NCBI GenBank assembly: GCA_900769555.1
Contig: CAAGHA010000043.1
Location: 30,175 to 94,174, forward strand
DNA length: 64,000 nt
Direction: 5' to 3'
From: Bacteroidales bacterium
Lineage (GTDB): Bacteria; Bacteroidota; Bacteroidia; Bacteroidales; Paludibacteraceae
The notes under the pieces: generated by a model
Databases searched by the model: none
What the model saw: only the letters and a program-made list of their open reading frames with translations
Told to the model about the DNA's origin: nothing
Shown: positions 16,731-64,000 of the stretch, in pieces
Layout of the letters: each line of letters starts with the position of its first letter
Position numbering within the stretch: position 1 is the stretch's first letter
Made by a program: the position numbers and the translations under genes

Positions 16731-17014
16731 AAGAATTCTGGGCTCCAAATGCATTTACACCTAACAAAGATGGTATAAATGATTATTTTAGGTTCGATGG
16801 AATGGAATACGTTACAGAATTTACATTTACGATATATGACCGCACAGGACGGGTAGTTTACGAGGGAAGTCATCCTGAAGATGAATGGGATGGAACGTTT
16901 AACGGTCAAGAGTGCCCTTGGGGAGTTTATGGTTGGGTTGCCAATTACGTAAGCGACTACAAAAACATCCACAAAGAGGGTACACGAAAAGGCGAAATCA
17001 CCCTAATCCGATAG
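2..17014 (+). CDS. Giant SprB-like cell-surface repeat protein, 5'-truncated by the window edge (at least 5,670 aa visible). It consists of tandem ~78-aa Cys-containing beta-sandwich-type repeats followed by a T9SS type-B (gliding-motility-associated) C-terminal domain.
   Basis: The reading frame is open from nt 2 with no stop. The ORF-track 'start' at 188 is a TTG inside a repeat (CIGESITLTGNGAT). The upstream translation IASENIDQVIATPTQKGTFTYQVIGEKDGCSNQANINITVNPLPEVEI is another repeat unit. The repeat signature is LP/YP..I.G....C.G....L.A.G...Y.W..G.T...I.V.P...T.Y.V.G.D.NGC. The last ~95 aa (FWAPNAFTPNKDGINDYF...YDRTGRVVYEG...WDGTFNG...GVYGWV...GEITLIR) match the TIGR04131 / T9SS type-B C-terminal-domain consensus. 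Confidence 0.85.
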   Translation: MASENIDQVIATPTQKGTFTYQVIGEKDGCSNQANINITVNPLPEVEIESQNTSVCIGESITLTGNGATNYTWSTGTSTWNGASISPIINESTNFTLTGTDGKGCQSKPKEITISTKEKPTVSWEKVEVCEGGDAKVVIEGADNITWKYDGTTTGNERTFTNVTEEKTYQITVSKNDCSKDTFITIYVNKLPTISLTNNLGEKNGVCIGNEVSIKASADNCEFRWKTGGDNVTLSGNNNETLSFRPKTSGTKEYYVVAQNKTTQCIDSVNYIYNVYDNPTNTITGTGITCINSTVRLESEKKNFVNYSWAESSNKQYIINTQSEVEVAIDSDKEYQLVVTDQNGCTDTSLYEVRAIAYPTFEFKYDTICSGEKGKIELTNIVPNNAKVNWSWNGGLLANESSIIEQTLNGDTEFTASVYTSIDEVNKCETNKVFTAAVHPTPNFTIQSNRDNDEICEKETITLTASDASYSYQWKVGEQIVAEDEQSVTKAPSENTTYNVIASNAKGCTTTLKKEVIVNKLPELSIETTGAACPGNTITIKVSGSDDIEWLNSEKISIGNKTNDLSVKIEDGGNKDTTFYVVGKSSKGCSVTENVQITKLTKPNLIFSGKTVICENNIPKISVSGASTYSWYNGDNLIGKGTELPETQPLTESKTYKVIGEDGANCSAEAFVTITVNKTPEVYITASNTDNISKTNICLGETVKLTAHADNVTFEDWENGELIVTGNEVGNKTYTIQVTEKSTQCPGSAKYDVNTLALPGVKIISNESEVCEGYTITLSSNDEYSSYQWYTLEGNNKININSNISSWTQTLNATTKFILDVTDGNSCKNSDTTEIVAKKYPIVTFEAPAVCSGTPGVIKVTASDADTYSWPNNGSNSENIWTSNDNLTNPKSFTITVGKAECYKTHSINIGIKEKPNLAILVNGENTNGNSVEVCSNNNTVVLNVTSDNKTLNTYNWTVTENSVSTNKSYTTNPTEKTTYKITAIDTEGCANEKEQTIVVNTPATITIEGDKSVCEDGNVTLTASGSKNYSWSVSPTDGANIRYNNDEKSNVTLQGIRKNITLTINGIDNNGCANEKVTHLISVINKPALTITSNNGKMELCSGENLTLNATATNATIKWKNNEEEGSSFTTPTLNTSEKKTYSYDVNYYYGESGTCSADTTVSIIVNPLPIVQITGDIAFCDGGKTTLTASEMYGNTNMTYKWDGNTEKTNSIEVNQTGTYKVIGTDDVTGCQSAEKTYNVTRYDNPTGVTISAAEATCKDSLITLTATGISQMEYEWYRVGENNNDVHIGNGRSIEQLISENVQFKIEVAEPHTQSNGQILRCYDTISYNVTAIDAPEFHFTGESVCYGENAEIKINGSADAEYTWNNLNHIGTNYTEKEMKSNKTYSVTATQNGCSRTKDTTLTIHPLPIINSITAEESVCLDSKITINSDCMGNGNLTYSWTTDNNDPSSIVGASNLSTLDVTPTKEGDRIYTLEITDENDCKNSSSITIGTKNLPIINISGNTTVCYNSDISLKVGNNLTFNWYEYDVTTAKKGDLLMSGNGNEPFVQTIQKDQSFYLEVENDEGCTQSKVVDVKVLTLPEIKWTGKDTICIGDETEITFVATKSGDKYSLFDEEKNTYKEVLKESFSPTTTTTYKIQVESENNCINEKELEIVVNALPEITINNVKDGSSSICLNSEITLEAGSNTNCDFEWSTGSTADEIIVKASTIEGYSAKLTGTDVNGCKNSTSYNVIGIALPTIELSGDKEVCNNKEAYVSVKDTKGYNYLWEDNNSTESERKVTITKDTTLVVTFTDPATQCSNKDSIKVMNIDYPTLKLSTENITVCLGESVTIKAETNATMVNWTGIPTSNKEYTTIVDNSKKLNVKANNNGCETSKEVTINYYNLPSVTIATSGIVCENKKGTLNAEANGGQEPYNYLWNDESKEELLTTKNLTIADNNSEYSVEVSDKNGCKATATATIQVAPNPVITIEAEEQSICNGENVKLTANGAGDEGSYIWNTNEEGSIITPTIENDMTFKVTGTNLNGCVGVSDELLITKKELPELEVSGDLTICYGDSTIITLSAAGTGEAKFYWTEDTEIGQYTEKIESAKRTLKPTTRTNYKVIIEQNGCSKEEEITINVNTLPEIRISSTQAENTICLGEKITLTATNGLTNYQWMDKSDNSESGTSNQVIVTPIKQTEYKVSAQDGNGCINSDSIVVIVNQKPEIQLESADAACINSSLVLNVKNADGYPSAKQYNWVTLGVNNSSSTMTTNHSANTTYQVIATAQNGCTDTAEHYVEVIELPVFSLKNNSPICFGEKVEIGINTSNDNYTYTWPSNGTTTGEEWVESNVHEASVTEYEYNVRGTITKVIKENSYECYSDVKTSVKVNELPTVKLLGTTFVCPEDATINLSAQGSNKTTFAWSAKENSGSIAGNGATAVASPSDAEILVYYVEGTNENSCKNRDSISIQKANEPQFEMESDSVGVCIGGEIELSLSTGDKYVESVSWSWNGGTSHNNSVKITNVNSRMVVKATATAEKGCTATKDFILKPVEYPNLEIEGSDYVCKNDTATINLSNAEQIVWGNTYYTNEATINEPLKENKTYTFVAINSDTINGKITTCKNDKDYTVEVRNLPIITLEKFDSICQGDLITIKANVQQEAAPYTYYWGKNETGQSIKSKPQQDTLFKVVVKDANNCVDSMECDVIVNPAPIFNVAPVIVCDGTRAIINSDNNNYTYQWEGTGDFSNLTGHTTSFEVTRDTSVVVIAKDDKGCRKQGFAEIRRKPNPKLQISGRNTICQNDTVHLSVKDLETEGGTTTYIWNKNSTENKSIFISNKIDEYKKFTVQGTKDGCITSATYQINVNNLPTIEIIGENQVCENGSIALKGEGGIQYRWNNEEYPSDATNANEEYQYSVDASNTLITIEGRDINGCINTSTINIAILQLPKFNITGDTIACNNSKIRLEVPGDVNSNKMTYEWKNEEEEVIASENYADVEITKDTKLKVTGINIEGCSFTDSITIKVKQAPKVEIADYSPYVCRGENGIIQLIDNADKFTWTDYNGNLLSENEKVEASIESNNTRFNVTLTNEYPIYKSKISCETDTTFIVNMWDLPQVKIDGSKAICAGEEVELTATEGLTYEWINTTKNDTLSNSEKKLKDKPSITTTYKVIATDGNQCENETDFTVIVNSLPDFELINNDEEVVCVGNEVNIKTNNQNYLYNWDGNGYLSKYNHTYTVDSEIEIVVYAMNNQTKCENSDTIKVGVKEYPTLSIDAPAYVCSGSTATITGKIDGVNYTWREEDENGKILSTDKSVTIDEIESDKQIYASVEKNGCTSDTTFIIRTWSLPNIKIEGSPATSICKNDSITLTAQGGTAYKWNNDDSQTSNTYKTPKLTSETKIKVWGEDGNQCANSDSITIYINELPEFDITGNDVICIGGKAELNTTNDGLSYIWKDKTGKEVSVQQYFTPTITKDTLFQVIGINALGCSNTQEHTITVNPYPVITTVLDSTVVCKGASAYIEVETDIESEYIWNNDKTQTDNSISKEIQNRTEFVVKATSKDGGCTSEMSYWVDVRELPTILAEDATICKNEKATLNASGTNISEYRWMTSGNSTTLNTGDQYTTPELATTTSYIVIGKDNFGCEGSKEVVVRINELPTFTLTNEASVCKNSETTIEASNPTLKYNWGGGYKTDLTNRLVIEKDTTITIIAMDDNGCVSEGSTTIKVKELPVLKFELANDYVCPEEDLTIKVSGAIDGYKWMDNSTKDYLTLKNIENNIEVSVEGTTNGCTSSIDTTINVWELPNIRIGSATEDVCIGNSMEIYGEGAGVGGRYIWDDNRTTDTITVSPTFEKASFTVIGIDANGCKNSYTFDANIHELPIITIEGEKEICRGENAELSASGTSEYYVWTMENEGKTDTLSMTSILRTAIDKDEIKFFVEGTDRYGCIALKSYDVKAKEFPTLTYRTNTAKDSVCKNGTIKIEVDGADSYLWQDGSTKTFVEEKLSNPAKYTIEGTRNGCTSKMTVNIGIWQLPEFNIEGENAVCAGGEIVLNAVPTIAGNRYSYTWENMDETSETITQKLETPNSTITYKAIAKDANQCQNYDVHTVKVNPLPTDIVISGETLICVGTETTLTASGSAIEYLWSNGTNSNEVTATIEKDSLFTVTGTDMNGCQYTTDIEVKVKEYPALNIEYPRYVCIGDSATIIVSGATSFIWEDTKDNNPIRKEKIESDTKFVIEGTTNGCTTREEFTISVWSLPSIWISTNDVDNEICNTESITLSAGGGVSGKYVWNNDSQQTSDEITVSPSENTIYTLVGEDENGCRNSGEFEVIVNELPTVEIEGTPLICAGDNVTLSANTTGNAIKTFVWSNGAADSEIEVAVKENTQFKVEVEDVNGCKAETTYNVETKPYPELTYTAPNHICIGNNVAVTVSGATTYEWIDAPQISGNNFVDTPKNDTLYKVRGTTNGCTSYLEIPMTVMPLPEIWISSASNEICKNTTLQLTANGGASYQWNTNASSQSITISPNTTTEYKVIGTDSYGCINDTSITIVVNELPEVKIFGETQICEGNSTTLWVEGDATRYTWTNTGEQSDTIYPVINKSTTFTVLAENVAGCTATATKTVASKPYPVLNYSAPATICEGEEMNIIVNGAEEYKWQDGSTSNTYSATLYSNSTFTVIGTSNGCSTTENFTVNVLPLPYIWITGTSDICLNDKVTLDVKGASTYKWSTGDETNSITTTPQDTTTYKVVGTDVNGCSSETEFTVKVHPLPILQISGEDAICYGESAELTASGNAKEYRWSTGQESMNIHPMITKTETFKLIGIDEFGCTNETSKEVTMKPNPILVFNAAKTVCYGSQARIIVSGADEYRWQDGSTGNEYIDTPENRTTYSVVGTTNGCTTEEKFQVDVLSLPSIWITGSLEICENDGVKLSASGGLSYEWNTGLKASELYANPKETTTYEVVGKDGNGCMNKQTYTVVVNPLPEFTIEGPNAVCKGEIAELNVNGDNYKYAWSTGAITANITPIVNENTIFTVEAINSYGCSAKKNHTVVSKPYPTLIYNGPKVVCAGEKVQLIVVGATNYQWGDSVSGNRLTIVPETNTTYSVKGETNGCYTEMSIPIDVLQKPTLTYQGNTTLCEGELLSLTVHGANSYSWNNGNNSNKIESYVRKSNQYIVTGKDEKGCTNKLTIDVTVNPEPKFNIIGDDVVCRGHNAKLTAVGDAETYLWGYGNSDLDDNVSSNNETVYVPISTSTYVFVEGRSSNGCPSRQYKTITTKESPNIVIEGNTEICLGDTIRLKGLGGESYVWKINNKKVGNTNTLEYKPTGNARIVLEGTLNECTTETEVYVKTHVPPTLMIDPDPKEICSGENAYLRVKGAKYYHWSTGDTTPSISPRLTSNETFTVTGTSTNGCTSTKTVSINVHELPRIKINLDSISGCFKEDKRTYLSALGGVEYKWESTPPYNEVNNQIGNLLEFYADRNYTIIVTGEDENGCRNKDSMLIIPEEDVVLKYAITPKVVEESNPIIQLEALSHTASRYTWTWEPQPQMYAKDDETKVGPKHTYTIKDVKNKSEVIYDITVTEGGCKYVGQDTVFVWKEFWAPNAFTPNKDGINDYFRFDGMEYVTEFTFTIYDRTGRVVYEGSHPEDEWDGTFNGQECPWGVYGWVANYVSDYKNIHKEGTRKGEITLIR

Positions 17015-52059: not shown

Positions 52060-53376
52060 CTAATACATTCTCAAACGTTGACCAATATAAATATTGTCTG
52101 ATTTTAGTTTATTCCACTTCTTAATTGTTGCTACAGAAACTTTTCTTCTTTTTGCGATACCGGACAATGTATCTCCTTTTTTCACGATATAGACACCTTT
52201 TCCTATTGCACCTTTCCCAGCTCGGTAGTATGGATCAGCTTGTGCAGGTAATACCACAACCCTATTTACATTAAATGAATCTGCCTTATACTTTAAAATA
52301 GAATCTTTCAATGTGATAAAACCATCGACATGACCCGCCGGCAAGCAAAGAGAATAAGCTGTTCCATTACCTGGAATAATATCTTTTCTATACTGAGGAT
52401 TCAAACTTTGAAGGACAGCTAAATCAACACCAAGTACTTCAGAAACTTGTGATAGATGCAAACGATCACTCAACATGATTGTATCACATATCATCGGCAT
52501 TTCAATCTTGGCTGGACAAATACCATGCTCTTTATAATAAGTCATGGCATAAGTTGCCCCTATGAACGCAGGAACATACCCCCTAGTTTCTCTTGGTAAG
52601 TAAGGATAAATAGCCCAATAATCCTTCTTACCACCTGAACGACGAATGGCCTTATTAACATTTCCCGGACCACAATTATAGGCAGCTATCACCAACGACC
52701 AATCATTATAAATATTATGCAAATCTCTTAAATAACGAACCGCAGCATTTGTAGCCTTAATAGGATCTCTTCTCTCATCAATCAAACTATTTCCAACCAA
52801 ACCATAAACCTTTCCTGTTCCATACATAAATTGCCATAATCCTGATGCTCCCGCAACGGAATAGGCTTTAGGATTAAGCGCAGACTCAATAACCGGCAAA
52901 TACTTTAACTCAATAGGAAGTCCGGCAGCATCCAATGCTTGCTCAAAAATAGGAAAATAATAAGAGCCAACTCCAAGCATATACTCCATCTGCTTTCTCT
53001 TCTTAACCGTATAGAGTTCTATATAACTTTTAACAATCGGATTATAAACCAACTCCATAATAGCAGGTATTTTCTGCAATCTCTGAATATATTGAGTATC
53101 TGTCAACTGAGGCAAAATCGAATCTGACTTACAATCAGAAGGTAAAACAGAAGAATGAAAAACACTTAACAAGCCATCTAAATTTTTCCCAAAAGTAATC
53201 GGCATGCCATACTCCGTTAAGGAATCAGACTGAAGAGAAGTAGCAACGGAATCTAAACCTGCAACCAATGAATCACTTTCATACTCCTCAGAAGAATCAT
53301 CCTGAGCAAATAAATTAAATGCAAAACTAACAAAAATTAAAAGCAAAAAATAACGAAATCTAACTATCATCATCAC
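52060..53376 (-). CDS. mltD: Membrane-bound lytic murein transglycosylase D-like protein (SLT domain plus C-terminal LysM)
   Basis: The SLT core is ESALNPKAYSVAGASGLWQFMYGTGKVYGL...AAYNCGPGNVNKAI. The C-terminal LysM is YIVKKGDTLSGIAKRRKVSVATIKKWNKL...IYIGQRLRMY. It has a signal peptide. Confidence 0.85.
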   Translation of the reverse strand: MMMIVRFRYFLLLIFVSFAFNLFAQDDSSEEYESDSLVAGLDSVATSLQSDSLTEYGMPITFGKNLDGLLSVFHSSVLPSDCKSDSILPQLTDTQYIQRLQKIPAIMELVYNPIVKSYIELYTVKKRKQMEYMLGVGSYYFPIFEQALDAAGLPIELKYLPVIESALNPKAYSVAGASGLWQFMYGTGKVYGLVGNSLIDERRDPIKATNAAVRYLRDLHNIYNDWSLVIAAYNCGPGNVNKAIRRSGGKKDYWAIYPYLPRETRGYVPAFIGATYAMTYYKEHGICPAKIEMPMICDTIMLSDRLHLSQVSEVLGVDLAVLQSLNPQYRKDIIPGNGTAYSLCLPAGHVDGFITLKDSILKYKADSFNVNRVVVLPAQADPYYRAGKGAIGKGVYIVKKGDTLSGIAKRRKVSVATIKKWNKLKSDNIYIGQRLRMY

Positions 53377-54137
53377 TTAAATTTTAAACAACATTGTACT
53401 CCGACAGAAGGACGGTAACTTGTAATCGAATAATTCTCAAGAACCGGTTCTATGCGAAACGACAGGTCTTCTGATACCTCAAAATCATACAAATGAGCAT
53501 CAACAAATGCATCTATCACACTTACAACATATAACGCAACACTTCCAAAAATACACAAATCACGTCCCCTTCTATATCCTGTTGTTTTTGTTTTAAACTG
53601 TTTAGTGAATTTATCTTTCTCCTCTGGATTGTATTTAGGAACTAAATCTAAAAAACTATTGGTATTGGGATCTGAATCTGTAATATCAAAATAGGCATTA
53701 CGATAATCGTTATACATACGACCATTCCAACCGATAAAGTAAGCAAATGTCAAGACTCCGCCATAAACAATAGGTAGTTTCCAATAACTTCTATTATAAA
53801 TCTGACCCAAACCCGGGCAAACAATTGCATACCATGTAGCCTTGCGTGGATTGGGTAAAAATGGTTCTGATAATCGAGCCTTACGCTTATCTCTTCGACT
53901 CAAAGTGAGACGATTATCAAAGTCTTCTCCAACCAACTTATCATTCGTAAATACCGTATCCACCACTACCGACATAACAACAGAATCCGAAGCCAAGTTC
54001 GACTCTTCAGCAGTCGCAACCGAAACCTCCTGAACAAAAGAAACTGAATCGCTCAAATTTACTTGGTTGGCAAACGTCTCAAATGAAAAGGTGGATAGAA
54101 ACAATAAAAACAATATTTTCAGACCTTTTTTCAACAC
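53373..54137 (-). CDS. DUF5683 domain protein (conserved parB-downstream gene in Bacteroidota)
   Basis: It has a signal peptide. WYAIVCPGLGQIYNRSYWKLPIVYGGV is the DUF5683 signature. The 4-bp ATGA overlap with mltD is consistent with the known parA-parB-DUF5683-mltD synteny. Confidence 0.6.
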   Translation of the reverse strand: MLKKGLKILFLLFLSTFSFETFANQVNLSDSVSFVQEVSVATAEESNLASDSVVMSVVVDTVFTNDKLVGEDFDNRLTLSRRDKRKARLSEPFLPNPRKATWYAIVCPGLGQIYNRSYWKLPIVYGGVLTFAYFIGWNGRMYNDYRNAYFDITDSDPNTNSFLDLVPKYNPEEKDKFTKQFKTKTTGYRRGRDLCIFGSVALYVVSVIDAFVDAHLYDFEVSEDLSFRIEPVLENYSITSYRPSVGVQCCLKFK

Positions 54138-54139
54138 CT

Positions 54140-55024
54140 CTATTGATTTTGGATCGAATCAAAAAACTCGAGAATTTTCAAAAACTCATCATCATTTTTG
54201 AACGAAATTGTGATTTTGCCTTTTCCTTTCGCATCACAAGAAAGATCCACTTTTGAAGAAAACAACTCAGACAATTTTGTTTTTAACTCTGAATATTCCT
54301 CCTTTAAATCGGCTTGAGAACTTTTTATCTTAGGCTTTTTCTCAACCCCAAGATTGCGCACCAACTCCTCTACCTTACGAACAGACAAACCTTCTGAAAT
54401 AATTTGAGAAAATATATTCAATTGTGCAACAGGATCATCAACTCCCACCAACGCACGAGCATGCCCCATGTCAATCTTCTTATCCTTAATCGCCATCTGA
54501 ATCTCGGCCGGTAAACGAAGCAAACGCAAATAATTAGTAACGGTAGCTCGTTTTTTCCCGATACGCTCACTCAATTGTTCTTGCGTATAGTTACACTTCT
54601 GCATCAAATTTTGACAAGAAAGAGCAATTTCAATCGCATTCAAATCTTCGCGCTGAATATTCTCTACCAATGCCATCTCCATCATCAACTCATCATTCAC
54701 CTCGCGAACATAAGCTGGAATCGTTGCTTTATTAGCCAATTTTGAAGCTCTAAAACGACGCTCACCGGCAATAATCATATATTTACCGTTTGCTAATTTC
54801 TTTAATGAAATAGGTTGAATTACTCCAACTTGACGAATAGACTCTGCCAACTCTTCCAATGATTCTTCATCAAAATCCCTTCGGGGTTGATCTAAATTTG
54901 CTTCAATTTCCTCAATAGAAATTTCATTGATAGAACTCGCTCCATCAAGAGTTATATCTTCATCACCACCGGACAACAATGCACCCAATCCTCGACCTAA
55001 GCCGCCACTTTTTTTCACTGCCAT
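54140..55024 (-). CDS. parB: ParB/Spo0J chromosome-partitioning protein
   Basis: The ParB box II region is IQPISLKKLANGKYMIIAGERRFRASKLA. The HTH motif is EQLSERIGKKRATVTNYLRLLRLP. Confidence 0.9.
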   Translation of the reverse strand: MAVKKSGGLGRGLGALLSGGDEDITLDGASSINEISIEEIEANLDQPRRDFDEESLEELAESIRQVGVIQPISLKKLANGKYMIIAGERRFRASKLANKATIPAYVREVNDELMMEMALVENIQREDLNAIEIALSCQNLMQKCNYTQEQLSERIGKKRATVTNYLRLLRLPAEIQMAIKDKKIDMGHARALVGVDDPVAQLNIFSQIISEGLSVRKVEELVRNLGVEKKPKIKSSQADLKEEYSELKTKLSELFSSKVDLSCDAKGKGKITISFKNDDEFLKILEFFDSIQNQ

Positions 55025-55038
55025 CTTTATGCTTCTAT

Positions 55039-55812
55039 TTAATTTTCGACTTCATTTTTATCCAAAAACTCCTTTGCCAATTGCATATAACAAAGAGCAC
55101 CTTTTGATTCTGCATCATACATAACAACCGGAAGGTGAAAACTTGGAGCTTCACTCAATTTAATATTGCGTTGTATAATTGTTTCAAACACCATATCCTT
55201 AAAGTTTGAACGAACGTCTTCTACCACTTGATTATTCAAACGTGTTCTAGAATCGTACATCGTTAATAAAAATCCTTCTATTTCCAACGATGGATTTAAC
55301 TTACTCTTTACCAACTTTATTGTACTCAACAATTGAGCAATTCCTTCCAATGCATAATATTCACACTGAACAGGAATAATCGTTGAATCTGTTGCAGTTA
55401 AAGCATTCAATGTAATAAGTCCTAACGACGGTGAACAATCTATGAGTATATAATCATATTCATCTCGCAATTGTTCTAACACATTCTTCATAAACATCTC
55501 TCGATTCTCCAACTCAACCATCTCAACTTCTGCACCAACCAAGTTTACATGAGAAGGAATTACCTTCAAATTTTCTAAATCGGTGTCACATATAGCTTCA
55601 TGTGGATCAATATCTCCTACCAAACACTCATAGATCGTATTCTTTACCTTACGAACATCAATACCCAATCCGGATGAGGCATTTGCCTGCGGATCTGCAT
55701 CTACTATAAGCACTTTTTTTTCTAAGACAGCCAATGAAGCTGCAAGATTTACGGTAGTAGTAGTCTTTCCTACTCCACCTTTCTGATTTGCTATTGATAC
55801 AATCTTTCCCAT
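55039..55812 (-). CDS. parA: ParA/Soj chromosome-partitioning ATPase
   Basis: The deviant Walker A motif is KIVSIANQKGGVGKTTTTVNLAASLA. The 257-aa length is typical of Soj. Confidence 0.9.
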   Translation of the reverse strand: MGKIVSIANQKGGVGKTTTTVNLAASLAVLEKKVLIVDADPQANASSGLGIDVRKVKNTIYECLVGDIDPHEAICDTDLENLKVIPSHVNLVGAEVEMVELENREMFMKNVLEQLRDEYDYILIDCSPSLGLITLNALTATDSTIIPVQCEYYALEGIAQLLSTIKLVKSKLNPSLEIEGFLLTMYDSRTRLNNQVVEDVRSNFKDMVFETIIQRNIKLSEAPSFHLPVVMYDAESKGALCYMQLAKEFLDKNEVEN

Positions 55813-56084: not shown

Positions 56085-56092
56085 TAAATTTG
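56085..56092 (+). promoter_or_regulatory. Bacteroidetes -7 promoter element TAAATTTG upstream of valS
   Basis: The -7 consensus TAnnTTTG is matched exactly. It lies about 40 nt upstream of the MEELANKY start and inside the ORF-track's over-extended N-terminus. Confidence 0.4.
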
Positions 56093-56131
56093 CGGATAAT
56101 TTATAAAAAAAACTATAACGCATTATATTTC

Positions 56132-58801
56132 ATGGAAGAATTAGCAAATAAGTACAACCCGACAGAGGTTGAGTCTAAGTGGTATGAGTATTGGTTAAAA
56201 AATGGATTTTTCAAGTCTAAACCAGATGGACGTGAACCTTATACCGTCGTCATTCCGCCACCAAATGTTACTGGTGTTCTTCACATGGGACATATGCTTA
56301 ACAATACAATCCAAGACATTTTGGTGCGTCGTGCTCGAATGATGGGCAAAAATGCTTGTTGGGTTCCGGGTACAGACCATGCGTCAATCGCTACAGAAGC
56401 AAAGGTGGTTAATAAATTGGCACAAGAGGGGATTAAAAAGAGTGATTTGACTCGTGAGCAATTTTTGGAACATGCTTGGGAATGGACGCATAAACATGGT
56501 GGTATCATTTTGGAGCAATTAAAGAAATTGGGGGCTTCTTGTGATTGGGATCGCACCGGTTTCACTATGGATAAAACTCGTAGCGAAAGTGTTATTAAAG
56601 TTTTTTGTGATTTATACAAAAAAGGACTTATATACAGAGGTGTAAGAATGGTCAATTGGGATCCTCAAGCGCTTACAGCTCTTTCAGACGAGGAGGTTAT
56701 TTACAAAGAGGAAAATAGCAAATTATTTTACTTAAAATATTACGTAGTTGATGATTCTTCTGAACCGGGTAAAGAGGGGGAAGTTATACACGAAGATGCC
56801 AAAGGTCGTTATGCCGTAGTTGCTACTACTCGTCCTGAAACAATTATGGGAGACACTGCAATGTGCATCAACCCTAATGACCCTAAAAATCAATGGCTAA
56901 AAGGAAAAAAGGTTATTGTTCCTATCGTAAATCGCGTTATTCCGGTCATTGAAGATGATTATGTTGATGTCGAATTTGGTACCGGTTGCTTGAAAGTAAC
57001 ACCTGCTCACGACGTGAATGACTATATGTTGGGAGAAAAATATAACCTTCAAACTATAGATATTTTCAATGACAATGGAACTCTTAGCGAAGCTGCTGGT
57101 ATTTACATCGGGAAAGATCGTTTTGAGGTTCGAAAAGAGATTGAAAAAGATTTGCAAGATGCGAACTTATTGGAAAAAGTTGAAGCTTATACCAACAAAG
57201 TGGGATACTCTGAAAGAACTCACGTCGTAATCGAACCTAAATTATCTATGCAATGGTTCTTGAAAATGGAGCATTTGGCCAAAATAGCTCTTGAACCGGT
57301 TATGAAAGATGAACTAAAGTTCTACCCAGCTAAATATAAAAACACCTATCGTAATTGGTTGGAAAACATCAAAGATTGGTGCATTAGCCGTCAATTATGG
57401 TGGGGACACCGCATACCGGCTTACTTCTTACCTGAAGGTGGCTTTGTTGTGGCTGAGACTGAGGATGAAGCAGTGAAATTGGCGCAAGAAAAAAGTGGAA
57501 ATTCATCTCTTACCATAAATGACCTAAGACAAGATGAAGATTGCTTGGACACTTGGTTCTCTTCTTGGCTATGGCCTATTTCTTTATTTGATGGAATAAA
57601 CAATCCTGGTAATGAAGAGATTAAATATTACTACCCTACCAGCGTATTGGTTACCGGCCCGGATATTATCTTCTTCTGGGTTGCCAGAATGATTATGTCC
57701 GGCTACGAATATGAAGGAGATATGCCATTTAAAAATGTATATTTCACAGGTATTGTGCGAGATAAAATCGGACGTAAAATGTCTAAATCATTAGGTAACT
57801 CTCCTGATCCATTGGAACTTATCGAGAAATTTGGTGCCGATGGCGTTCGTATGGGAATGATGTTATCTGCTCCTGCAGGAAATGATATATTATTTGATGA
57901 AGCTCTTTGCGAACAAGGAAGAAACTTTAACAACAAAATTTGGAATGCATTCCGTTTGGTAAAAGGTTGGAGTGTAGACAAATCTTTAGAACAAAGCCAA
58001 TCTTCTAAAATTGCTACAGAGTGGTTCCAAGAACAACTAAATAAAACGATTGCAGAAATTAATGATTGCTTCGAAAAATATAGAATTAGTGAAGCATTAA
58101 TGGCTGTATATAAGTTATTCTGGGATGAGTTCTCTTCTTGGTATTTGGAGATGGTTAAACCAGCCTATCAACAACCGATAGACGAAAAGACATACAATCA
58201 AACATTAGATTTCTTCGAAACTCTATTGAAATTGTTGCATCCTTTCATGCCGTTTATTACGGAAGAGTTGTACCAAAATATTAAAGAGCGTAGCGAAAAA
58301 GACAGCATAATGGTGAGCTTGCTTCCTACTGGAAAAGAAATTAAAGATATTTTGATTACCAAAATGGAAACAACTAAAAATATCATTGCCGGTATTCGTA
58401 ATATTCGCGCAGAAAAAGGTATTTCTCCACGCGAAACTTTTGATATGTTCTTCAAAGGTGATTTCGATGAATCCAACAATGCTGTTATCATGAAATTGGC
58501 AAATATCAATACGATTGCAGCATACAACGGAAACAATGACAATTGTGTTTCATTCATTGTGGGAACAACAGAAATTTCAATTCCATTGGGTAACAATATC
58601 AATGCAGAAGAAGAAATTGCTAAAATGGAGAACGAAATCAAATATTTAGAAGGTTTCTTAGTTTCTGTTGAGAAAAAATTGAGCAACGAAAAATTTGTTG
58701 CTAATGCAAAACCTGAAGTGGTTGAAAATGAGCGTAAAAAGAAGGCGGATGCAGAAAGTAAGATAGCGACATTGAAAGCAAATATCGCTTCGCTGAAATA
58801 G
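56132..58801 (+). CDS. valS: Valine--tRNA ligase
   Basis: The HIGH motif is [13 protein letters not shown] and the KMSKS motif is KMSKSLGN. The N-terminus [21 protein letters not shown] is the usual ValRS start, while the track's ATG at 56090 is probably upstream of the true start. It has a C-terminal coiled-coil tRNA-binding arm. Confidence 0.93.
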
Positions 58802-58842
58802 ATTTCTTCAACCTTATTGAAAACATTACAAAACATAATAAA

Positions 58843-58880
58843 GAAGTGTGCAAATTAAATAATTCTTGTTTGCACACTTT
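58843..58880. terminator. Stem-loop between the convergent valS and radical-SAM genes
   Basis: agtgtgcaaa (58845–58854) pairs with tttgcacact (58869–58878) around a 14-nt loop. There is an A-run on plus and a T-run on minus. Confidence 0.45.
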
Positions 58881-59115
58881 CTTCAAAAAACATCCCCCAA
58901 TAATTAAGATAATTTCTATAAATTAAATTATTACAAATTTGAAAGATATTTGAGTTATTTTGTTTATATTTGAGTTGGAACGATGCGAGTTTAGTAACGG
59001 AACAAATGTAAGCAAGATAGTTTGAATAGATTCAAAAGTAACCGAAACTGAAAGAGAATCATAAAATAATAGACAAGAAATCTTAATTTATAGAAGAAGT
59101 TGTCTAAAGTTAAAC

Positions 59116-61212
59116 CTAGTTTTTCTTCCCTCTTCGTGTCAGAGCAATAGTTGGACTAAGATCATACTCACATTTCATCAGATAAAGTTCCGAATATGGT
59201 TCTATAATAGATTTTCTATTATTCTGATAGAACGAAATCAAACGTTGCACTTTCGTGTTCTCAAATTTACAATCTTCATCAAATCTATTCGTATGAATAA
59301 ACGATTCAACATAAGCCCATTCTTCAGAAGAAACAGAGTTTTTACACTCATTATAACATTTCCACCAAGCTTGGACAGAAATTTTGTCTAAACTATGGCC
59401 TAGTTTTTCTTTGGCTTTTGCAATACCTTCGTTAGTTCCTAACCATTCGAAAAAAAAGCGATAAATAATCATTGTCTCCGGCATCTCAAGTAACTTGTGA
59501 TACTCGTCAAGATTAGAGCCGAATGCCTTATGAAAGAATGAAGTTCCTTTGCCAATTTTACCTTTTGTGCTGTTGAGTATTGCTTGAATGGCACGAATAT
59601 ATTTTCTATTCCAATGTATCCCGATGTAATCACGATTATGAGAGTAATCTCCATCCATTTCGTCTGTTTTACGAATTGGATGGAATTTCATCGGGAATGA
59701 ATATATGCTTATATTCAGTTCATCACACAAATCAACGTTGATTTTTAAGCGTTTGTATAAATCATCGGGATAATCTTTGAAATTGTATAACAGATAGTTG
59801 GAAAAATCGCGCATTCCAGCATCCTTGCACATTCTGATAGCAGCGCAATATTTCTTTTCTGTACGAATATCATCAAAAGCGATACGCACAGGACGAATGG
59901 CAATCTGCCCCATTAAACGAGCCTTATCGGGTGTGAACAAACGGGCATCCAATCCTTGGTTGAAATCAACGATGCGAAGTTTGCCCAATCCTGGTTTGTG
60001 ATGCTTTTCGTAAATTGGTTTAATTTCTTCGTATGCTGCAATAAGACTTTCTTTCGTGGTTGTCAGATACTTGGTGATATGGTACTTTTCGCGAATGGTG
60101 TAAAATGTATAAGATTCCTCACCTTTGAGCGAATTGTATAATTCATCTATCAGATACCACGCTTTTCGGATATACGCTCTATCATTTACATTGCGTTGCA
60201 AATTCCTTATGGCTATTTCCAAAAGATTTGGTTGAATAAATTTCGCCCCCTTCTGAAAACCACAATCAATGATTTCTTGAATGATTTGCGGATAATATTC
60301 GGATGCCAACACGTTGTTATCCATCAGAAGCAAATCTTTCTGTTCACCGTACAAATCATTTATACGTTCAACACGCTCTTTCAATGGTATATAAGGCATA
60401 TAGTCGGGTTCGAGAGTTGGAACAGCACAGAATGCACACTTGTTCACACAGCCACGTGTTGTGTAACGATAGTAGGCGTTTGACATCGGATATTGATATC
60501 CAATCTCATCAAGAATTGAATAGTCAAGTTCCAACTCGTCAATCTTTTGCTCATCGCCTTTGTCGAGGTCGCCAGCACGAAGAATACCGATGTGGATGCC
60601 ACCAGCCTGACCTTTTTTGTGGATATGCAAACCAGTCGCCTCAGACAACTCTTTGGGCTGTATGGAAGCCAAAACGCCGCCAACCATCAGATTTTTCGGG
60701 TCTTTGACCAACTTCTTTGCAAATTCAATAGTTTCGATGGTTATGTCCCAATAAAAAGTGAAAAGAGTTGTTACGCCAACTCTATCCCATTCGGGTTCCT
60801 GTTCCCACGTCTTTTTCCAATACTTGTCTTTGGCTTCATTTATAAGTTCGAAAAGGACAATTTTTTTTACTGGTTTTTCGTCAACGGAAGTAGCTGGAAT
60901 CATCAAAGGCAACGAATCTAGCAATTCTGTTCGGCGAGTGCGGATATATTCAAACAGAACGTCTTTGTAGAAATGCCAATTATGGTTTGTACCATCGGCA
61001 TCGTTCATTTTTTCAATCAAATTGTCGGTGATGCGTTCGATGACAAACTTTTTTAGGTCGCCTTTGTAAAAGACAACCTCCCACTCATCACCATACAATT
61101 CTCCACGATTGCGGTAATAAGTTGCTATCTTCATTAATCCTACAGGAGGGAACTTGTTTGAGTAGTTCGGCTCAATTAAGAGTACCTTTTTCTTTTTTTT
61201 AGTTCTTGCCAT
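59116..61212 (-). CDS. B12-binding-domain-containing radical SAM protein (698 aa) with a C-terminal extension of about 200 aa
   Basis: The CxxxCxxC motif TTRGCVNKCAFCAV is encoded on the minus strand at about 60428–60455. The N-terminal region KVLLIEPNYSNKFPPVGLMKIATYYRNRG resembles the class-B rSAM cobalamin-binding domain. Confidence 0.7.
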   Translation of the reverse strand: MARTKKKKKVLLIEPNYSNKFPPVGLMKIATYYRNRGELYGDEWEVVFYKGDLKKFVIERITDNLIEKMNDADGTNHNWHFYKDVLFEYIRTRRTELLDSLPLMIPATSVDEKPVKKIVLFELINEAKDKYWKKTWEQEPEWDRVGVTTLFTFYWDITIETIEFAKKLVKDPKNLMVGGVLASIQPKELSEATGLHIHKKGQAGGIHIGILRAGDLDKGDEQKIDELELDYSILDEIGYQYPMSNAYYRYTTRGCVNKCAFCAVPTLEPDYMPYIPLKERVERINDLYGEQKDLLLMDNNVLASEYYPQIIQEIIDCGFQKGAKFIQPNLLEIAIRNLQRNVNDRAYIRKAWYLIDELYNSLKGEESYTFYTIREKYHITKYLTTTKESLIAAYEEIKPIYEKHHKPGLGKLRIVDFNQGLDARLFTPDKARLMGQIAIRPVRIAFDDIRTEKKYCAAIRMCKDAGMRDFSNYLLYNFKDYPDDLYKRLKINVDLCDELNISIYSFPMKFHPIRKTDEMDGDYSHNRDYIGIHWNRKYIRAIQAILNSTKGKIGKGTSFFHKAFGSNLDEYHKLLEMPETMIIYRFFFEWLGTNEGIAKAKEKLGHSLDKISVQAWWKCYNECKNSVSSEEWAYVESFIHTNRFDEDCKFENTKVQRLISFYQNNRKSIIEPYSELYLMKCEYDLSPTIALTRRGKKN

Positions 61213-61221
61213 TTGAGCCTG

Positions 61222-62874
61222 TTACTTCTTCAAATCATTTAATACTGATTCTTTGATGTTTTTGACGATTTGTTCGTACTTCTTGAGATAACGAGTATCA
61301 ATGATATTGAAAATCATCTTGACCATCGAAACCTCTTTGTCGTTGTATTTGCCCGACAATTCACTGATTTTCTCGTCCAGCGTTTTGGGCGGATTTACTG
61401 GTGTGCGAGGTGTTGATGGGACATTGCAGGTCGGATTGTTCTGATACTGCTCGAATTGCTTTTTGAAGCCTTCGGCTAAAGTCTGCATTGATTTTGTTTG
61501 GTTGTCATCGTTGCTTTTTGCAATGATTTTATTCAATGCGACCTGCGACTTTTGCTTTATTTCCTGTTGTTTGGCTAATTCAGTGGCTTTGCTTTCCGCT
61601 GGAATCTCATTCGATTCTTCAATTTTGCGGATTTCCTCATCTGCCTTACGAATATTTTCAAGTTGCTTGTTGGCTTTGTTGGCTTCCTGATATAGTTTTT
61701 CCAAATCGCTTCTGAAAAACTCTTCCAATTTGGCTTGGAACTTTTTCGCTACTGATGTCGGGGCTATGTCTGAACGGTCGGCGGTTGGCTTAATGTCTTG
61801 GTTTATGATAAAAACCTCACCATTGAAATACACGTGGCTGCGAGCCTGTTTGAAATACTTGTTCAAAACATTCTCATCGCCAACTTGAATGTTGTGACAA
61901 CGCAGACGGATGCTTCTTGTCAAAACATTTTCTTGTGTATAAGGGTCAATTGCCTTGATTTGTGTTCCAGCGGGTGTGTAGGCATACCAGCCCCACGCCA
62001 AATCACCCAACTGAGGGTCGGCAATGGAAAAGAATCTGATTTCGTTGATTGGTGCATTATCCTTTCTTATGCTTCCATCGTCATCAGTGTATTCGTGTTC
62101 TGTGCCTTTGAATTTTATCTCATATGGTTTTTCCAGTCCGACAATGTTGTTGATGGAAACTTTTACAGCATTCAGTTGGTTATAGTAGTTCAGATATTTG
62201 CTGTCATCTTTGGTGATGTTCTGTTTGATGAGGTTGTTGAAGAAAGTAGCCTCGTAAGGTATCGGGGCTACTTGCTTCAAGTAGGCGTTGATTTTGTCCT
62301 CGTCCAAAAGAACATCATGATAATCGGGCAGAATGTCTTTCAGCACAACTTTGAAATAGTGCTTTTGCGGTTCTTCGGCAATGTCGTTTCTAAATGTTGT
62401 AACCCTATGAATGACTTCCGATGCAGAACTGTTATCCTCATTATCTTCCAAAATCTCACGGATGTGGTTCATATCGAAAACCATTTCAGAAGCCACATTC
62501 TCACCTTGTGCAGATGTGAAGAACGAAAGTTGTTTGCAATAGCCGCCACCAACCAAACGACCTATACCATAGAAACCTGCCGCCGATTCTTTCTTCTTCT
62601 TTGAATGGGCAATGTATTTCAATGTCATTTCGGCTTCGTCTGCTTTTATGCCTGTGCCGTTATCCTCGATGGTGATGGTATGATGAAATTTGTCGATGTT
62701 GATAGAAACGTGACCATCTTTCTTTTCGATGAAGCCTAATTCTGAAGCCTCATTTATTGAATCACAGGCGTTTTGCAAATACTCACGGTATATTGTTTCT
62801 GCATCGGGATAAAGCGAGAACATCAACTGTTCAAGCAAGTCCTTTCCTACTAAATCTATTGTTTCTGCTGCCAT
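61222..62874 (-). CDS. Hsp90/MORC-like GHKL-family ATPase (550 aa) with a K/E-rich coiled-coil C-terminus; not housekeeping htpG
   Basis: LLEQLMFSLYPDAETIYREYLQNACDSINEA aligns with the Hsp90 N-box pattern LL.L.I.SLYS....FLRELISNASDA. The G1 box is ITIEDNGTGIKADE and the G2-like box is GFYGIGRLVGGGY. The gene sits 9 bp upstream of the rSAM gene and 6 bp downstream of the HerA-like gene. Confidence 0.65.
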   Translation of the reverse strand: MAAETIDLVGKDLLEQLMFSLYPDAETIYREYLQNACDSINEASELGFIEKKDGHVSINIDKFHHTITIEDNGTGIKADEAEMTLKYIAHSKKKKESAAGFYGIGRLVGGGYCKQLSFFTSAQGENVASEMVFDMNHIREILEDNEDNSSASEVIHRVTTFRNDIAEEPQKHYFKVVLKDILPDYHDVLLDEDKINAYLKQVAPIPYEATFFNNLIKQNITKDDSKYLNYYNQLNAVKVSINNIVGLEKPYEIKFKGTEHEYTDDDGSIRKDNAPINEIRFFSIADPQLGDLAWGWYAYTPAGTQIKAIDPYTQENVLTRSIRLRCHNIQVGDENVLNKYFKQARSHVYFNGEVFIINQDIKPTADRSDIAPTSVAKKFQAKLEEFFRSDLEKLYQEANKANKQLENIRKADEEIRKIEESNEIPAESKATELAKQQEIKQKSQVALNKIIAKSNDDNQTKSMQTLAEGFKKQFEQYQNNPTCNVPSTPRTPVNPPKTLDEKISELSGKYNDKEVSMVKMIFNIIDTRYLKKYEQIVKNIKESVLNDLKK

Positions 62875-62880
62875 AATTTT

Positions 62881-64000
62881 TTATCCGTTAGGGAATTGTT
62901 TGTATGTGTTGAATGGGAATTTGATGTTAACTAAAGAACGCAAGGCTGGATTTGAAATAATGTATTCGCCAGCCGAAAGGCGTGTCATCATATTCTGATA
63001 GACTTTCGGTATGTACCGATAGTCGGATTTTGAAACTTCTATTGCGTTTGTTCTGCCGTAGGCGGAAGTGGCGCAGTTGCCTTTTACACGGTCGTGTATG
63101 GCACTGCGGAACTGCTCGACAGAGAATAAAATGATACCCAAAGAACGGCCTCGCTCTGTGATATCGAGAAGTTGATGCAGAATTGGCGAACTTTTAGGTG
63201 TGTCGTTCGATGCGTATTTGTTCAACTCATCAACAAAGATGATTACCTTTTTAGGCACATTGTTGCGTTCTGTGTCGAACTTCATTTCCCAAATGGCGCG
63301 TGCTACACTACCGAAAACAAAACCTTGCGTGTTGTCATCAAGCAAGGTGATGTCGATAACCATTACTTGACCGCCAACAAGGACGTTGCGTACAACGGTT
63401 GTGAGGTCGCGTTCGTGGTCGGCAACATTATCATTGAAAATGCCTTGCAAGTCAACTGCCTTGTTGATGATGCGCAGGAATTTTTTCCACGAAGATGGTA
63501 ATATTTCATTCCTTGCCCCTGTAGCGCTGCCATTAGCATATTGTGCAACAACGTCTTTCAATGTGTCCCACGTACTGACATTACTAAAATTCCCCTGCTT
63601 GTTGATGATGTAGTTGACACAACTTTCCATTGTGCCAGTGCTGTCGTCCTCGTTGGCAAGCAACAAATCAAGTTTGTCGATGTAGTTTTCACAGGGGAAT
63701 TTATAGGAGAAAGCCTTATTGTTTCCACGCTGCCGCTCAACATCTTTCGGGTCGGCATTTGTCAATACGTTGCTTGGACGCTGGTTGTCGTATGGATAAT
63801 AGTACGTAACATTTTGGAACGGCAACGGTTGCAAGCCCAACTCATCGGTATATATGGCTTTGTCCTTGTCTTTCAGTTCGGTATTAGGTTCGTCAATGGC
63901 CATCAAATCCCTGCCTTTGACATTGAAGAACACGAAAGCGATATCGTCGCCATCTTCGGTGCAAAATTTCTGCTGAATGGCATTGAGCAAGAACATTGAG
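62881..64000 (-). CDS. HerA/FtsK-superfamily (DUF87-like) ATPase, C-terminal 372 aa; the N-terminus including Walker A lies beyond the window
   Basis: The Walker B box is VIIFVDELNKYA. The sensor/arginine-finger region ITERGRSLGIILFSVEQFRSAIHDRVKGNCATSAYGRTN matches the HerA/VirB4 pattern EGRKyG..l.laTQrP..l...vlsqCnT.i.lRl.n. The frame is open to nt 64000. Confidence 0.6.
   Translation of the reverse strand, partial: SMFLLNAIQQKFCTEDGDDIAFVFFNVKGRDLMAIDEPNTELKDKDKAIYTDELGLQPLPFQNVTYYYPYDNQRPSNVLTNADPKDVERQRGNNKAFSYKFPCENYIDKLDLLLANEDDSTGTMESCVNYIINKQGNFSNVSTWDTLKDVVAQYANGSATGARNEILPSSWKKFLRIINKAVDLQGIFNDNVADHERDLTTVVRNVLVGGQVMVIDITLLDDNTQGFVFGSVARAIWEMKFDTERNNVPKKVIIFVDELNKYASNDTPKSSPILHQLLDITERGRSLGIILFSVEQFRSAIHDRVKGNCATSAYGRTNAIEVSKSDYRYIPKVYQNMMTRLSAGEYIISNPALRSLVNIKFPFNTYKQFPNG

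Follow-up and report, generated by a model that had tools for sequence, protein, structure and literature searches.

A conserved, mobile NurA–HerA–GHKL–radical SAM gene cassette of Bacteroidales as a candidate anti-mobile-element defence system

Introduction

What function could unite a HerA-type ATPase, a GHKL ATPase and a large radical S-adenosylmethionine (SAM) enzyme that are encoded side by side in a Bacteroidales genome? The question is raised by the right end of a 64,000-nucleotide stretch of contig CAAGHA010000043.1 (positions 30,175 to 94,174 of the forward strand; assembly GCA_900769555.1, family Paludibacteraceae), referred to below in its full length as the window. Here the list of open reading frames (ORFs) contains three minus-strand genes in a row, with the first gene truncated at the window edge. 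A preliminary description, prepared from the sequence alone, had interpreted them as one operon with a defence or otherwise DNA-directed role, noting that HerA-like ATPases are established hubs of anti-phage systems. We report that the three genes belong to a cassette of four, encoding a NurA-like nuclease, HerA, the GHKL ATPase and the radical SAM enzyme. Because its gene content, its mobility and the company of genes in which it is found fit anti-mobile-element systems, the cassette is very probably a defence system of this kind when all mechanistic versions are taken together. The more specific reading that we favour, with a probability of about 0.7, is an undescribed four-gene defence system in which the GHKL ATPase and the radical SAM enzyme act on DNA and NurA–HerA serves as the DNA-degrading effector.

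Results

Gene content and conserved order

The radical SAM enzyme (window positions 59116-61212, minus strand, 698 aa) is encoded by the last gene of the cassette, and is preceded by the GHKL ATPase (61222-62874, minus strand, 550 aa) and by HerA (62881-64000, minus strand). The HerA ORF extends from 62881 to at least 63996 and is open at the window end, the window holding the C-terminal 372 of its 555 aa. Spacers of 9 bp (61213-61221) and 6 bp (62875-62880) separate the radical SAM from the GHKL gene and the GHKL from the HerA gene, respectively, and valS (56090-58801, plus strand) is convergent with the radical SAM gene. These coordinates agree with the layout given in the preliminary description, and all the motifs quoted there (VIIFVDELNKY, ITERGRSLGIILFSVEQ...GNCATSAYGRTN, YREYLQNACDS, ITIEDNGTGI, GFYGIGRLVGG and CVNKCAFC) were recovered in the translations.

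An exact look-up of the 550-aa GHKL protein retrieved a 145-kb metagenome contig (L001), identical to the window over the 1120-nt overlap. This contig completes HerA (555 aa, L001:7497-9164) and carries, just outside the window and separated from the HerA gene by a 2-bp gap, the first gene of the cassette, which encodes a NurA-like nuclease of 415 aa (L001:6247-7494). The cassette is thus one of four genes (NurA, HerA, GHKL and radical SAM), not of three. Upstream of it on L001 lie ordinary aldehyde dehydrogenase, short-chain dehydrogenase and glycosyltransferase genes. The full HerA and a further partner, both sought by the preliminary description on the upstream contig, are accordingly present on L001, with neither an integrase nor a tRNA. 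The proposal of a single operon stands as regards linkage, which is conserved across species, but not as regards gene number, since the leading NurA gene had been missed.

Conservation was surveyed by running an alignment of the radical SAM enzyme against one genome per GTDB species, and 80 loci were fetched. At least 558 stretches encoding the enzyme were found in the species-representative genomes, across many phyla, and its relatives form 1,467 protein clusters at 50% identity. The fetched loci are mostly from Bacteroidota, the others coming from Treponema and Sphaerochaetaceae (Spirochaetota), Victivallales, Clostridia, Peptostreptococcaceae, Ignavibacteriota, Desulfobacteraceae and Aminicenantes, and the cassette is particularly common in Bacteroidales of the gut and rumen. 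Cultured carriers include Prevotella sp. P5-50 (NZ_NPJA01000033), Hoylesella loescheii An865, Parabacteroides faecalis AGMB00274, Dysgonomonas termitidis CCUG 66188 and Runella salmonicolor S5. When gene order was counted in the 67 loci where 4.7 kb or more precede the radical SAM gene, the order NurA-HerA-GHKL-radical SAM on the same strand was found in 65, all from different species. The exact order is present in 57 of these, whereas 7 include a second GHKL gene and 1 a split NurA gene; the remaining 2 of the 67 loci are without NurA–HerA. The core genes mostly overlap or nearly abut, with median gaps of 1, 1 and -4 bp. A Leptospira-like genome contains the same four genes, beside IS1595 transposases, with a radical SAM enzyme of 38% identity. 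Moreover, pairwise identities co-vary strongly between NurA and HerA (r = 0.94) and between GHKL and either of them (r = 0.81-0.87). The linkage of the four genes is far beyond chance, and the neighbourhood, whose conservation in other genomes the preliminary description had treated as decisive, is kept across phyla.

The NurA–HerA module

The cassette HerA matches the HerA chain of the NurA–HerA complex 7f6d (7f6d_B) of Deinococcus radiodurans, with E = 3e-36 as a single sequence and 1e-50 with a 41-sequence profile. The match runs in two stretches, profile positions 4-247 and 390-546, and covers both the HAS-barrel region at the N-terminus and the RecA-like ATPase core. The Walker A motif is unusual, reading GISGLAAKTS in the cassette HerA and GISGVATKTS in the HerA of 7f6d; G173, S175, G176, L177, A178, K180, T181 and S182 are invariant in the HerA alignment, as are the Walker B residues D440 and E441. 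The portion inside the window includes the Walker B motif VIIFVDELNKY and the arginine/sensor region, with the HAS barrel and Walker A located beyond the window end. Only weak matches were obtained with PADLOC models (mad8, 6e-7, a partial match of 27 bits; HerA, 1e-3). Judged by these similarities, the cassette HerA is a member of the FtsK/HerA superfamily and of its bacterial NurA-associated clade.

The product of the first gene appears to be a very divergent NurA-like nuclease. Its profile gave exactly one match in the PDB, the NurA chain of the same complex (7f6d_H, E = 0.049). Pfam NurA (PF09376) was the sole recurrent family, matching 5 of 41 orthologues (best E = 3.7e-4); the L001 protein itself gave no Pfam NurA match. 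The profile also recognised, at 3e-31, a protein of Marinitoga camini virus 1 labelled by its depositors as a NurA-type, Rad50/Mre11-associated exonuclease, which adjoins a HerA matching the cassette HerA profile at 2e-105. Invariant or nearly invariant residues in the 41 NurA-like sequences are D95-G96-S97, E229, K250-D251-G252-S253 and H390. The set D95/E229/D251/H390 presumably represents the NurA catalytic motifs (DGS...E...DG[ST]L...H), a correspondence not drawn from a structural alignment. Directly after the NurA-like gene comes herA, the gap between the two having a median of 1 bp in 69 loci. On the basis of the homology and the overlapping nurA-herA genes, a hexameric, DNA-translocating HerA ring that binds a NurA dimer would be expected.

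The GHKL ATPase

The GHKL protein scored 38.7 bits against Pfam HATPase_c_3 (cut-off 25), and its Bergerat motifs are intact (E31/N35, D71xGxG75 and G100xxGxG105). In an AlphaFold2 (AF2) model with a predicted local distance difference test (pLDDT) score of 85, the ATP-binding domain is followed by a second, transducer-like alpha/beta domain that extends to approximately residue 360. The C-terminal half is modelled as long coiled-coil helices of about 100 residues (374-479) and then a small helical domain. The closest folds are those of MORC3, SMCHD1, MutL and Hsp90. Intact Bergerat motifs combined with a second transducer-like domain that superposes, in the model, on MORC or MutL are the expected features of a GHKL+S5 ATPase (MORC, paraMORC or MutL), and the protein is predicted to belong to this group. 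It is also the fastest-evolving protein of the cassette, with a mean pairwise identity of 34%, HerA being the slowest at 59%.

By sequence, the ATP-binding domain is nearest to Hsp90, with the matches to HtpG in the PDB limited to the N-domain. Close homologues are named 'molecular chaperone HtpG' by the pipelines of the Joint Genome Institute (JGI), a misannotation that arises from this N-terminal ATP-binding domain alone. The HtpG equivalog model NF003555 gave 42.3 bits against a cut-off of 371, over residues 11-94 only, and an identity as housekeeping HtpG was rejected, as the preliminary description had presupposed. The JGI name, together with weak NCBIfam matches of the radical SAM enzyme to lipid and cofactor families, would suit a set of unrelated adjacent genes, i.e. 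a housekeeping htpG, a metabolic B12-dependent radical SAM enzyme and an unrelated ATPase. However, 65 of the 67 loci preserve the order, with overlapping genes, the HtpG match covers the N-terminal 84 residues only, and the radical SAM enzyme reaches 22 bits where 360 are required. Order conservation and scores below the cut-offs thus exclude chance adjacency, and we assign this explanation a negligible probability.

In Parabacteroides chinchillae DSM 29073 (L042:8409-9998) an in-frame stop was found in the GHKL gene, with NurA, HerA and the radical SAM enzyme intact. Unless this is a sequencing error, loss of GHKL beside the nuclease module seems to be tolerated.

The radical SAM enzyme

The radical SAM enzyme scored 25.9 bits against Pfam Radical_SAM (PF04055), below the cut-off of 29.5 bits. 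It falls below the threshold of every curated family, the curated class-B models remaining far under their cut-offs, and a PDB sequence search with the enzyme returned no meaningful relative. The view that it stands outside the characterised families is supported by these results. C255, C259 and C262 (CX3CX2C; C255-VNK-C259-AF-C262) are invariant in 40 homologues, and no other cysteine is conserved. In the AF2 model (pLDDT 82), the N-terminus forms a B12-binding-like Rossmann domain (residues ~8-200, with a helical insert at 53-132). The core is a partial barrel that carries the CX3CX2C motif and a helical insert (330-404), and the C-terminus is an all-helical domain (~536-690). The barrel fold matches AprD4 (top), TsrM, MgmA and RimO. 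The modelled combination of a CX3CX2C motif in the barrel with an N-terminal B12-binding-like Rossmann domain is what would be expected of a class-B radical SAM enzyme. It is shared with the class-B enzymes and relatives AprD4, TsrM, MgmA, TokK, CysS and OxsB as well as with RimO and MiaB, and weak Pfam B12-binding matches were seen among distant relatives of the cassette enzyme. Judging from the model, the enzyme probably represents a remote branch of the class-B/methylthiotransferase architecture, with a putative use of cobalamin. It should be added that AprD4 carries the annotation of a radical SAM 1,2-diol dehydratase, not of a methylase, and uses no B12. In combination, the family assignments of the preliminary description hold for HerA (7f6d_B, 1e-50), GHKL (HATPase_c_3, 38.7 bits) and the radical SAM enzyme (invariant cysteines and AF2 fold).

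Relatives of the enzyme were also encountered in phages. LoVEphage-type phages of Bacteroides/Phocaeicola (OY731433, PQ571265, PQ571302 and MW660583) encode short 'radical SAM domain proteins' with 34-37% identity to residues 215-336; these may serve in counter-defence, be moron genes or have an unrelated role. In a PHROGs scan, phrog_9298, a short phage radical SAM family, matched the core of the enzyme at 2e-36, and nothing was found for NurA or HerA. In the temperate Thermotogae phage Marinitoga camini virus 1 (L092, KP836355, 37383-41209), a 360-aa radical SAM enzyme of the cassette family is convergent with HerA and NurA of the cassette families, near a phage resolvase and with no GHKL.

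Genomic context and mobility

The cassette forms an island with a GC content of 38-46% and a GC skew of approximately 0, compared with 30-38% and a strong skew in the flanks. The island is distinct from, and foreign to, its flanks in composition, as had been remarked previously. Neither the aldehyde dehydrogenase nor the valS flank of the window locus was found in any of the fetched loci (0/80); since the flanks differ, the site occupied by the cassette changes from genome to genome. The genes that recur around it encode MobA/VirD2 relaxases, tyrosine integrases, RhuM, DUF3987/PriCT_2 primases, DUF6371 and AAA_14/DUF4143 ATPases, and such surroundings look like the cargo regions of integrative mobilisable elements. 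The cassette is horizontally acquired. In qualitative terms it displays what is generally looked for in a defence system, namely the company of defence genes and mobile elements and a patchy lateral distribution. The defence or DNA-directed role put forward in the preliminary description is hence backed by context: the relaxase, integrase, RhuM and primase flanks, relatives in defence islands and a prophage copy.

Directly 3' of the radical SAM gene, 13 loci (e.g. L021:11982-14447), among them many Prevotella and Bacteroidales cassettes, encode a protein of 821 aa. It combines a helix-hairpin-helix of RpoA-CTD type with a sigma-70 region-4 helix-turn-helix, the latter weakly resembling MzaA, and may also contain an HA domain. 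A 350-aa protein (8 loci) and a Schlafen/AlbA_2-type regulator were also found at this position, and the window copy is without any of these downstream genes. No methyltransferase or other candidate self-marking enzyme recurs in the neighbourhoods. A contig named 'Bacteriophage sp.' (MT836743) contains the full cassette; being an unverified 8.9-kb fragment, it was set aside in judging carriage by phages.

Variants and distant relatives

In some Bacteroidota cassettes (e.g. L063, L071, L076 and L080) an ABC ATPase matching PADLOC NsnB (8e-66) is inserted together with a partner of ~270 aa (NsnC, 5e-7), followed by a second GHKL. Other cassettes contain a second, sacsin/MzaB-like GHKL and a PP_RS20740-like protein of ~333 aa. 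Much more distant relatives of the radical SAM enzyme still adjoin a GHKL of the same family (E ~1e-100 against the GHKL profile). Radical SAM–GHKL pairs without NurA–HerA were found in L078, L084 and L087/L088. One pair belongs to the cargo of a Tn7-like element, where a Shedu-type SduA_C protein is its neighbour, and a distant pair lies beside an AbiU/AIPR protein. On alphaproteobacterial plasmids (e.g. pNL1 of Novosphingobium aromaticivorans), a DGQHR protein abuts the radical SAM gene or overlaps it by a few bases; this protein is DpdB-like (TIGR03187, 154 bits), with pairs of PIN-like and GHKL proteins alongside. Because distant relatives keep GHKL and swap the nuclease module, the portable evolutionary core is the radical SAM–GHKL pair, and the nuclease module is exchangeable. 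HerA is part of the unit, as the preliminary description had it, but not its evolutionary core.

Other neighbourhoods of the two core families were also recorded. One radical SAM relative (L086) adjoins an Eco57I restriction-modification gene, a resolvase and a SLATT and ThsB-TIR (Thoeris-type) pair, and no GHKL partner was detected at this locus. Paralogues of the GHKL family occur with 'PIN-like domain' proteins on pNL1 (L090, NC_009426, 114946-122990) and on a Rhizobium plasmid (L091). In the Tn7-like element (L087:12040-15784) a GHKL paralogue occurs with SduA_C and a PP_RS20740-like protein. Proteins of this GHKL family appear to partner nuclease effectors in general. In L096:269-7434, a complete Menshen-like trio (GmrSD_N/DUF262, an AAA_15/AAA_21/DUF3696 ATPase and a 268-aa protein) is immediately preceded by genes for a 548-aa radical SAM relative and a 657-aa protein; the 657-aa protein was not recognised by the GHKL profile.

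Relation to known systems

The combination of NurA, HerA, GHKL and radical SAM genes matches no system in PADLOC v2.0.0 (2023). It was found neither in the open-access literature nor in bioRxiv, and it is not mentioned by Kaur 2020, the 2024 Dnd reappraisal or Makarova 2014. Within this scope the original impression that the triad had not been described is borne out, and the cassette is a candidate for an undescribed ATPase–nuclease system with a new radical SAM–GHKL core.

The Sir2-HerA and DUF4297-HerA anti-phage systems combine a HerA ATPase with an enzymatic effector (PMC11472057, PMC11291478). They resemble the cassette in joining a HerA-family ATPase to an effector in a mobile operon, and in both, a HerA ring would be expected to assemble with a nuclease partner. 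However, the partners in the cassette are NurA, GHKL and the radical SAM enzyme, no Sir2 or DUF4297 domain was found in Pfam or PADLOC scans, and the GHKL and radical SAM genes have no counterpart in those systems. An assignment to MADS was likewise rejected, as the mad8 match of HerA is partial (27 bits), no other mad component was found and the model needs MAD6-8. Prokaryotic MORC and paraMORC GHKL+S5 ATPases are known from restriction-modification-like systems (Iyer, Abhiman and Aravind 2008, PMC2292703), where radical SAM, HerA and NurA partners are not mentioned. MZA does not apply either, given that the window GHKL has no PADLOC MzaB match and that the matching paralogue is confined to other loci (6e-10 over ~90 residues).

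The Dnd and Ssp (phosphorothioation) and Dpd (7-deazaguanine) systems are similar to the cassette in their conserved enzymatic core with variable nuclease modules. The proteobacterial radical SAM relatives even carry a DndB/DpdB-type DGQHR protein as in Dnd and Dpd; in contrast, the window cassette is without it, the cassette has no Dnd, Ssp or Dpd enzymes, and the DGQHR protein reaches 42 bits against the 300-bit cut-off of DpdB. Viperins and Ophion are anti-phage systems that depend on catalysis by a radical SAM enzyme, as the cassette would. Prokaryotic viperins are single proteins of ~300 aa. Ophion consists of a radical SAM enzyme, a PHP phosphatase and a phosphoribosyltransferase (bioRxiv 10.1101/2025.09.30.679545). 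The cassette enzyme is neither of these, being of 650-700 aa, class-B-like by its model, accompanied by GHKL, HerA and NurA and without a PADLOC match. Finally, Menshen (NsnA-NsnB-NsnC) comprises a ParB-DUF262 protein, an ABC ATPase and an inPIN nuclease (PMC12065111). NsnB/NsnC-like genes are inserted between HerA or GHKL and GHKL-radical SAM in some Bacteroidota loci, yet the window cassette has no Nsn genes, and the variants with the insert lack NsnA and have GHKL in that position.

Surroundings of the locus in the window

The island is bordered downstream by a 314-bp spacer (58802-59115) that separates the stop codons of the convergent valS and radical SAM genes and has a GC content of ~30-32% compared with ~40% within the cassette. 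A consensus scan identified no terminator-like site in the spacer, the sole match being inside the end of valS. With the exact valS protein as the query for an empty site, every contig recovered either carries the cassette or ends at its border. In sample ERZ27227514 the assembly breaks on both sides of the valS/radical SAM junction, one contig (L098) ~250 bp past valS and another (L002) ~360 bp past the radical SAM gene, which may point to strains with and without the island or to variation at its border.

Beside valS lies a chromosome-partition neighbourhood on the minus strand (52060-55812), an ordinary core-genome context that comprises parA (55039-55812, minus strand) next to valS, parB (54140-55024, minus strand), a DUF5683 protein (53373-54137, minus strand) and an SLT/LysM transglycosylase (52060-53376, minus strand). 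The first 40 kb of the window consist of two giant plus-strand ORFs, 188-17014 (5608 aa) and 17225-40642 (7805 aa), in a region of strongly positive AT skew.

Discussion

The reading of the cassette as a four-gene defence system builds on the gene content and its conserved order, on the families and folds assigned to the products, and on the mobile elements and defence islands with which the cassette is associated. In this system NurA and HerA would be the effector, with the HerA ring feeding double-stranded DNA ends to NurA for degradation, as suggested by the homology to 7f6d. The MORC/MutL/Hsp90-like GHKL, with its coiled-coil tail, could act as an ATP-driven dimerising clamp on DNA. It may in addition be the sensor and the adaptor between the nuclease module and the radical SAM enzyme; its rapid evolution is as expected for the part that meets the invader. 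The radical SAM enzyme, forming the core together with GHKL, would have DNA or a nucleotide as the target of its radical chemistry. The proteins would be expected to form a complex and the cassette to confer a defence phenotype, with DNA as the likely substrate of the radical SAM enzyme and with some means of telling self from non-self.

Our preferred version is restriction-modification-like, i.e. the radical SAM–GHKL pair would mark resident DNA and NurA–HerA would destroy unmarked, free-ended DNA. This preference is based on the DNA-directed partners of the radical SAM enzyme (the DGQHR protein of DndB/DpdB type, the helix-hairpin-helix/helix-turn-helix protein and the MORC/MutL-class ATPase), on the fact that no other marking enzyme recurs, and on the resemblance of a conserved core with swappable nucleases to Dnd, Ssp and Dpd. 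A further, tentative proposal concerns the chemistry. The class-B-like radical SAM enzyme and the MORC-like clamp, joined in Proteobacteria by a DndB/DpdB-like ParB-fold partner, could install a novel radical-derived self mark on DNA, e.g. by C-methylation or C-H functionalisation, or could damage invader DNA directly. Swappable nucleases (NurA–HerA, NsnB/C-like, AbiU/AIPR and PIN-like) would then act on the outcome.

Several observations can be read differently. In an abortive-infection or nucleotide-based defence without self-marking, GHKL would sense infection, and the radical SAM enzyme would be the effector or signal generator, either making an antiviral or signal nucleotide in the manner of viperin or inactivating RNA or protein, with NurA–HerA as a second arm. 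The radical SAM–GHKL pairs that stand alone in defence islands (L087/L088, L078 and L084) may be self-sufficient, which speaks for such a mechanism. The closest radical SAM folds (AprD4, TsrM, MgmA, RimO and MiaB) act on small molecules, proteins and RNA, and both the sensor-like evolution of GHKL and the tolerated GHKL nonsense mutant with intact NurA–HerA agree with it. Effector swapping around a conserved enzyme furthermore recalls CBASS-type systems in general. Conversely, Pfam scans revealed no SAVED, CARF, STING or TIR ligand-sensing domain on NurA, HerA or GHKL. The radical SAM enzyme has no match in PADLOC, which we assume to include viperin models, and the DGQHR/DpdB-like and helix-hairpin-helix/helix-turn-helix partners point to DNA. 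This explanation shares the defence claim and differs in mechanism; we consider it less likely than the DNA-directed model, yet a serious rival to it.

A number of results weigh against the DNA-directed four-gene system that we favour. The substrates of the nearest radical SAM folds are an aminoglycoside (AprD4), proteins (MgmA and RimO), tRNA (MiaB) and a free amino acid (TsrM), not DNA. The co-variation of the radical SAM enzyme with the other three proteins is looser (r = 0.51-0.67). The P. chinchillae nonsense codon is hard to square with a need for GHKL in self-protection, and the standalone radical SAM–GHKL pairs count against a restriction-modification-like logic. The window locus has no integrase, tRNA or convincing flanking direct repeats; PADLOC v2.0.0 has no model that matches the radical SAM enzyme, GHKL or the NurA-like protein; and no experimental report on the cassette was found in the searchable open-access and bioRxiv literature. 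Lastly, HerA–NurA in Deinococcus and archaea is described as a DNA-repair and end-resection machine. The cassette could alternatively serve DNA repair or recombination, with NurA–HerA resecting ends, the MutL/MORC-like GHKL coordinating and the radical SAM enzyme reversing a lesion like spore photoproduct lyase. The NurA–HerA complexes of known structure (PDB 7f6d, 7wrw and 7wrx) and the archaeal machines appear homologous to the cassette pair, whose genes are adjacent and overlapping. However, the pair here is joined to GHKL and the radical SAM enzyme in a mobile cassette of foreign composition, surrounded by mobile-element and defence genes. Mre11 and Rad50 are not recurrent neighbours in the loci examined. 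A pure repair function appears improbable.

On the practical side, the present assignment corrects the recurrent misannotation of the GHKL protein as 'molecular chaperone HtpG'. If the cassette is a defence system, it represents a new architecture, in which a bona fide NurA–HerA resection machine has been recruited under a MORC/Hsp90-like ATPase and a large radical SAM enzyme. Should the proposed DNA self mark prove true, it would be the first radical SAM-based epigenetic system of restriction-modification type. The portable radical SAM–GHKL core provides a tractable entry point and may reveal a new modification of nucleic acids or nucleotides, and the cassette bears on the prokaryotic roots of the MORC/SMCHD1-type ATPases. 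Few defence systems have been characterised in the gut and rumen Bacteroidales, the very organisms in which the cassette is frequent.

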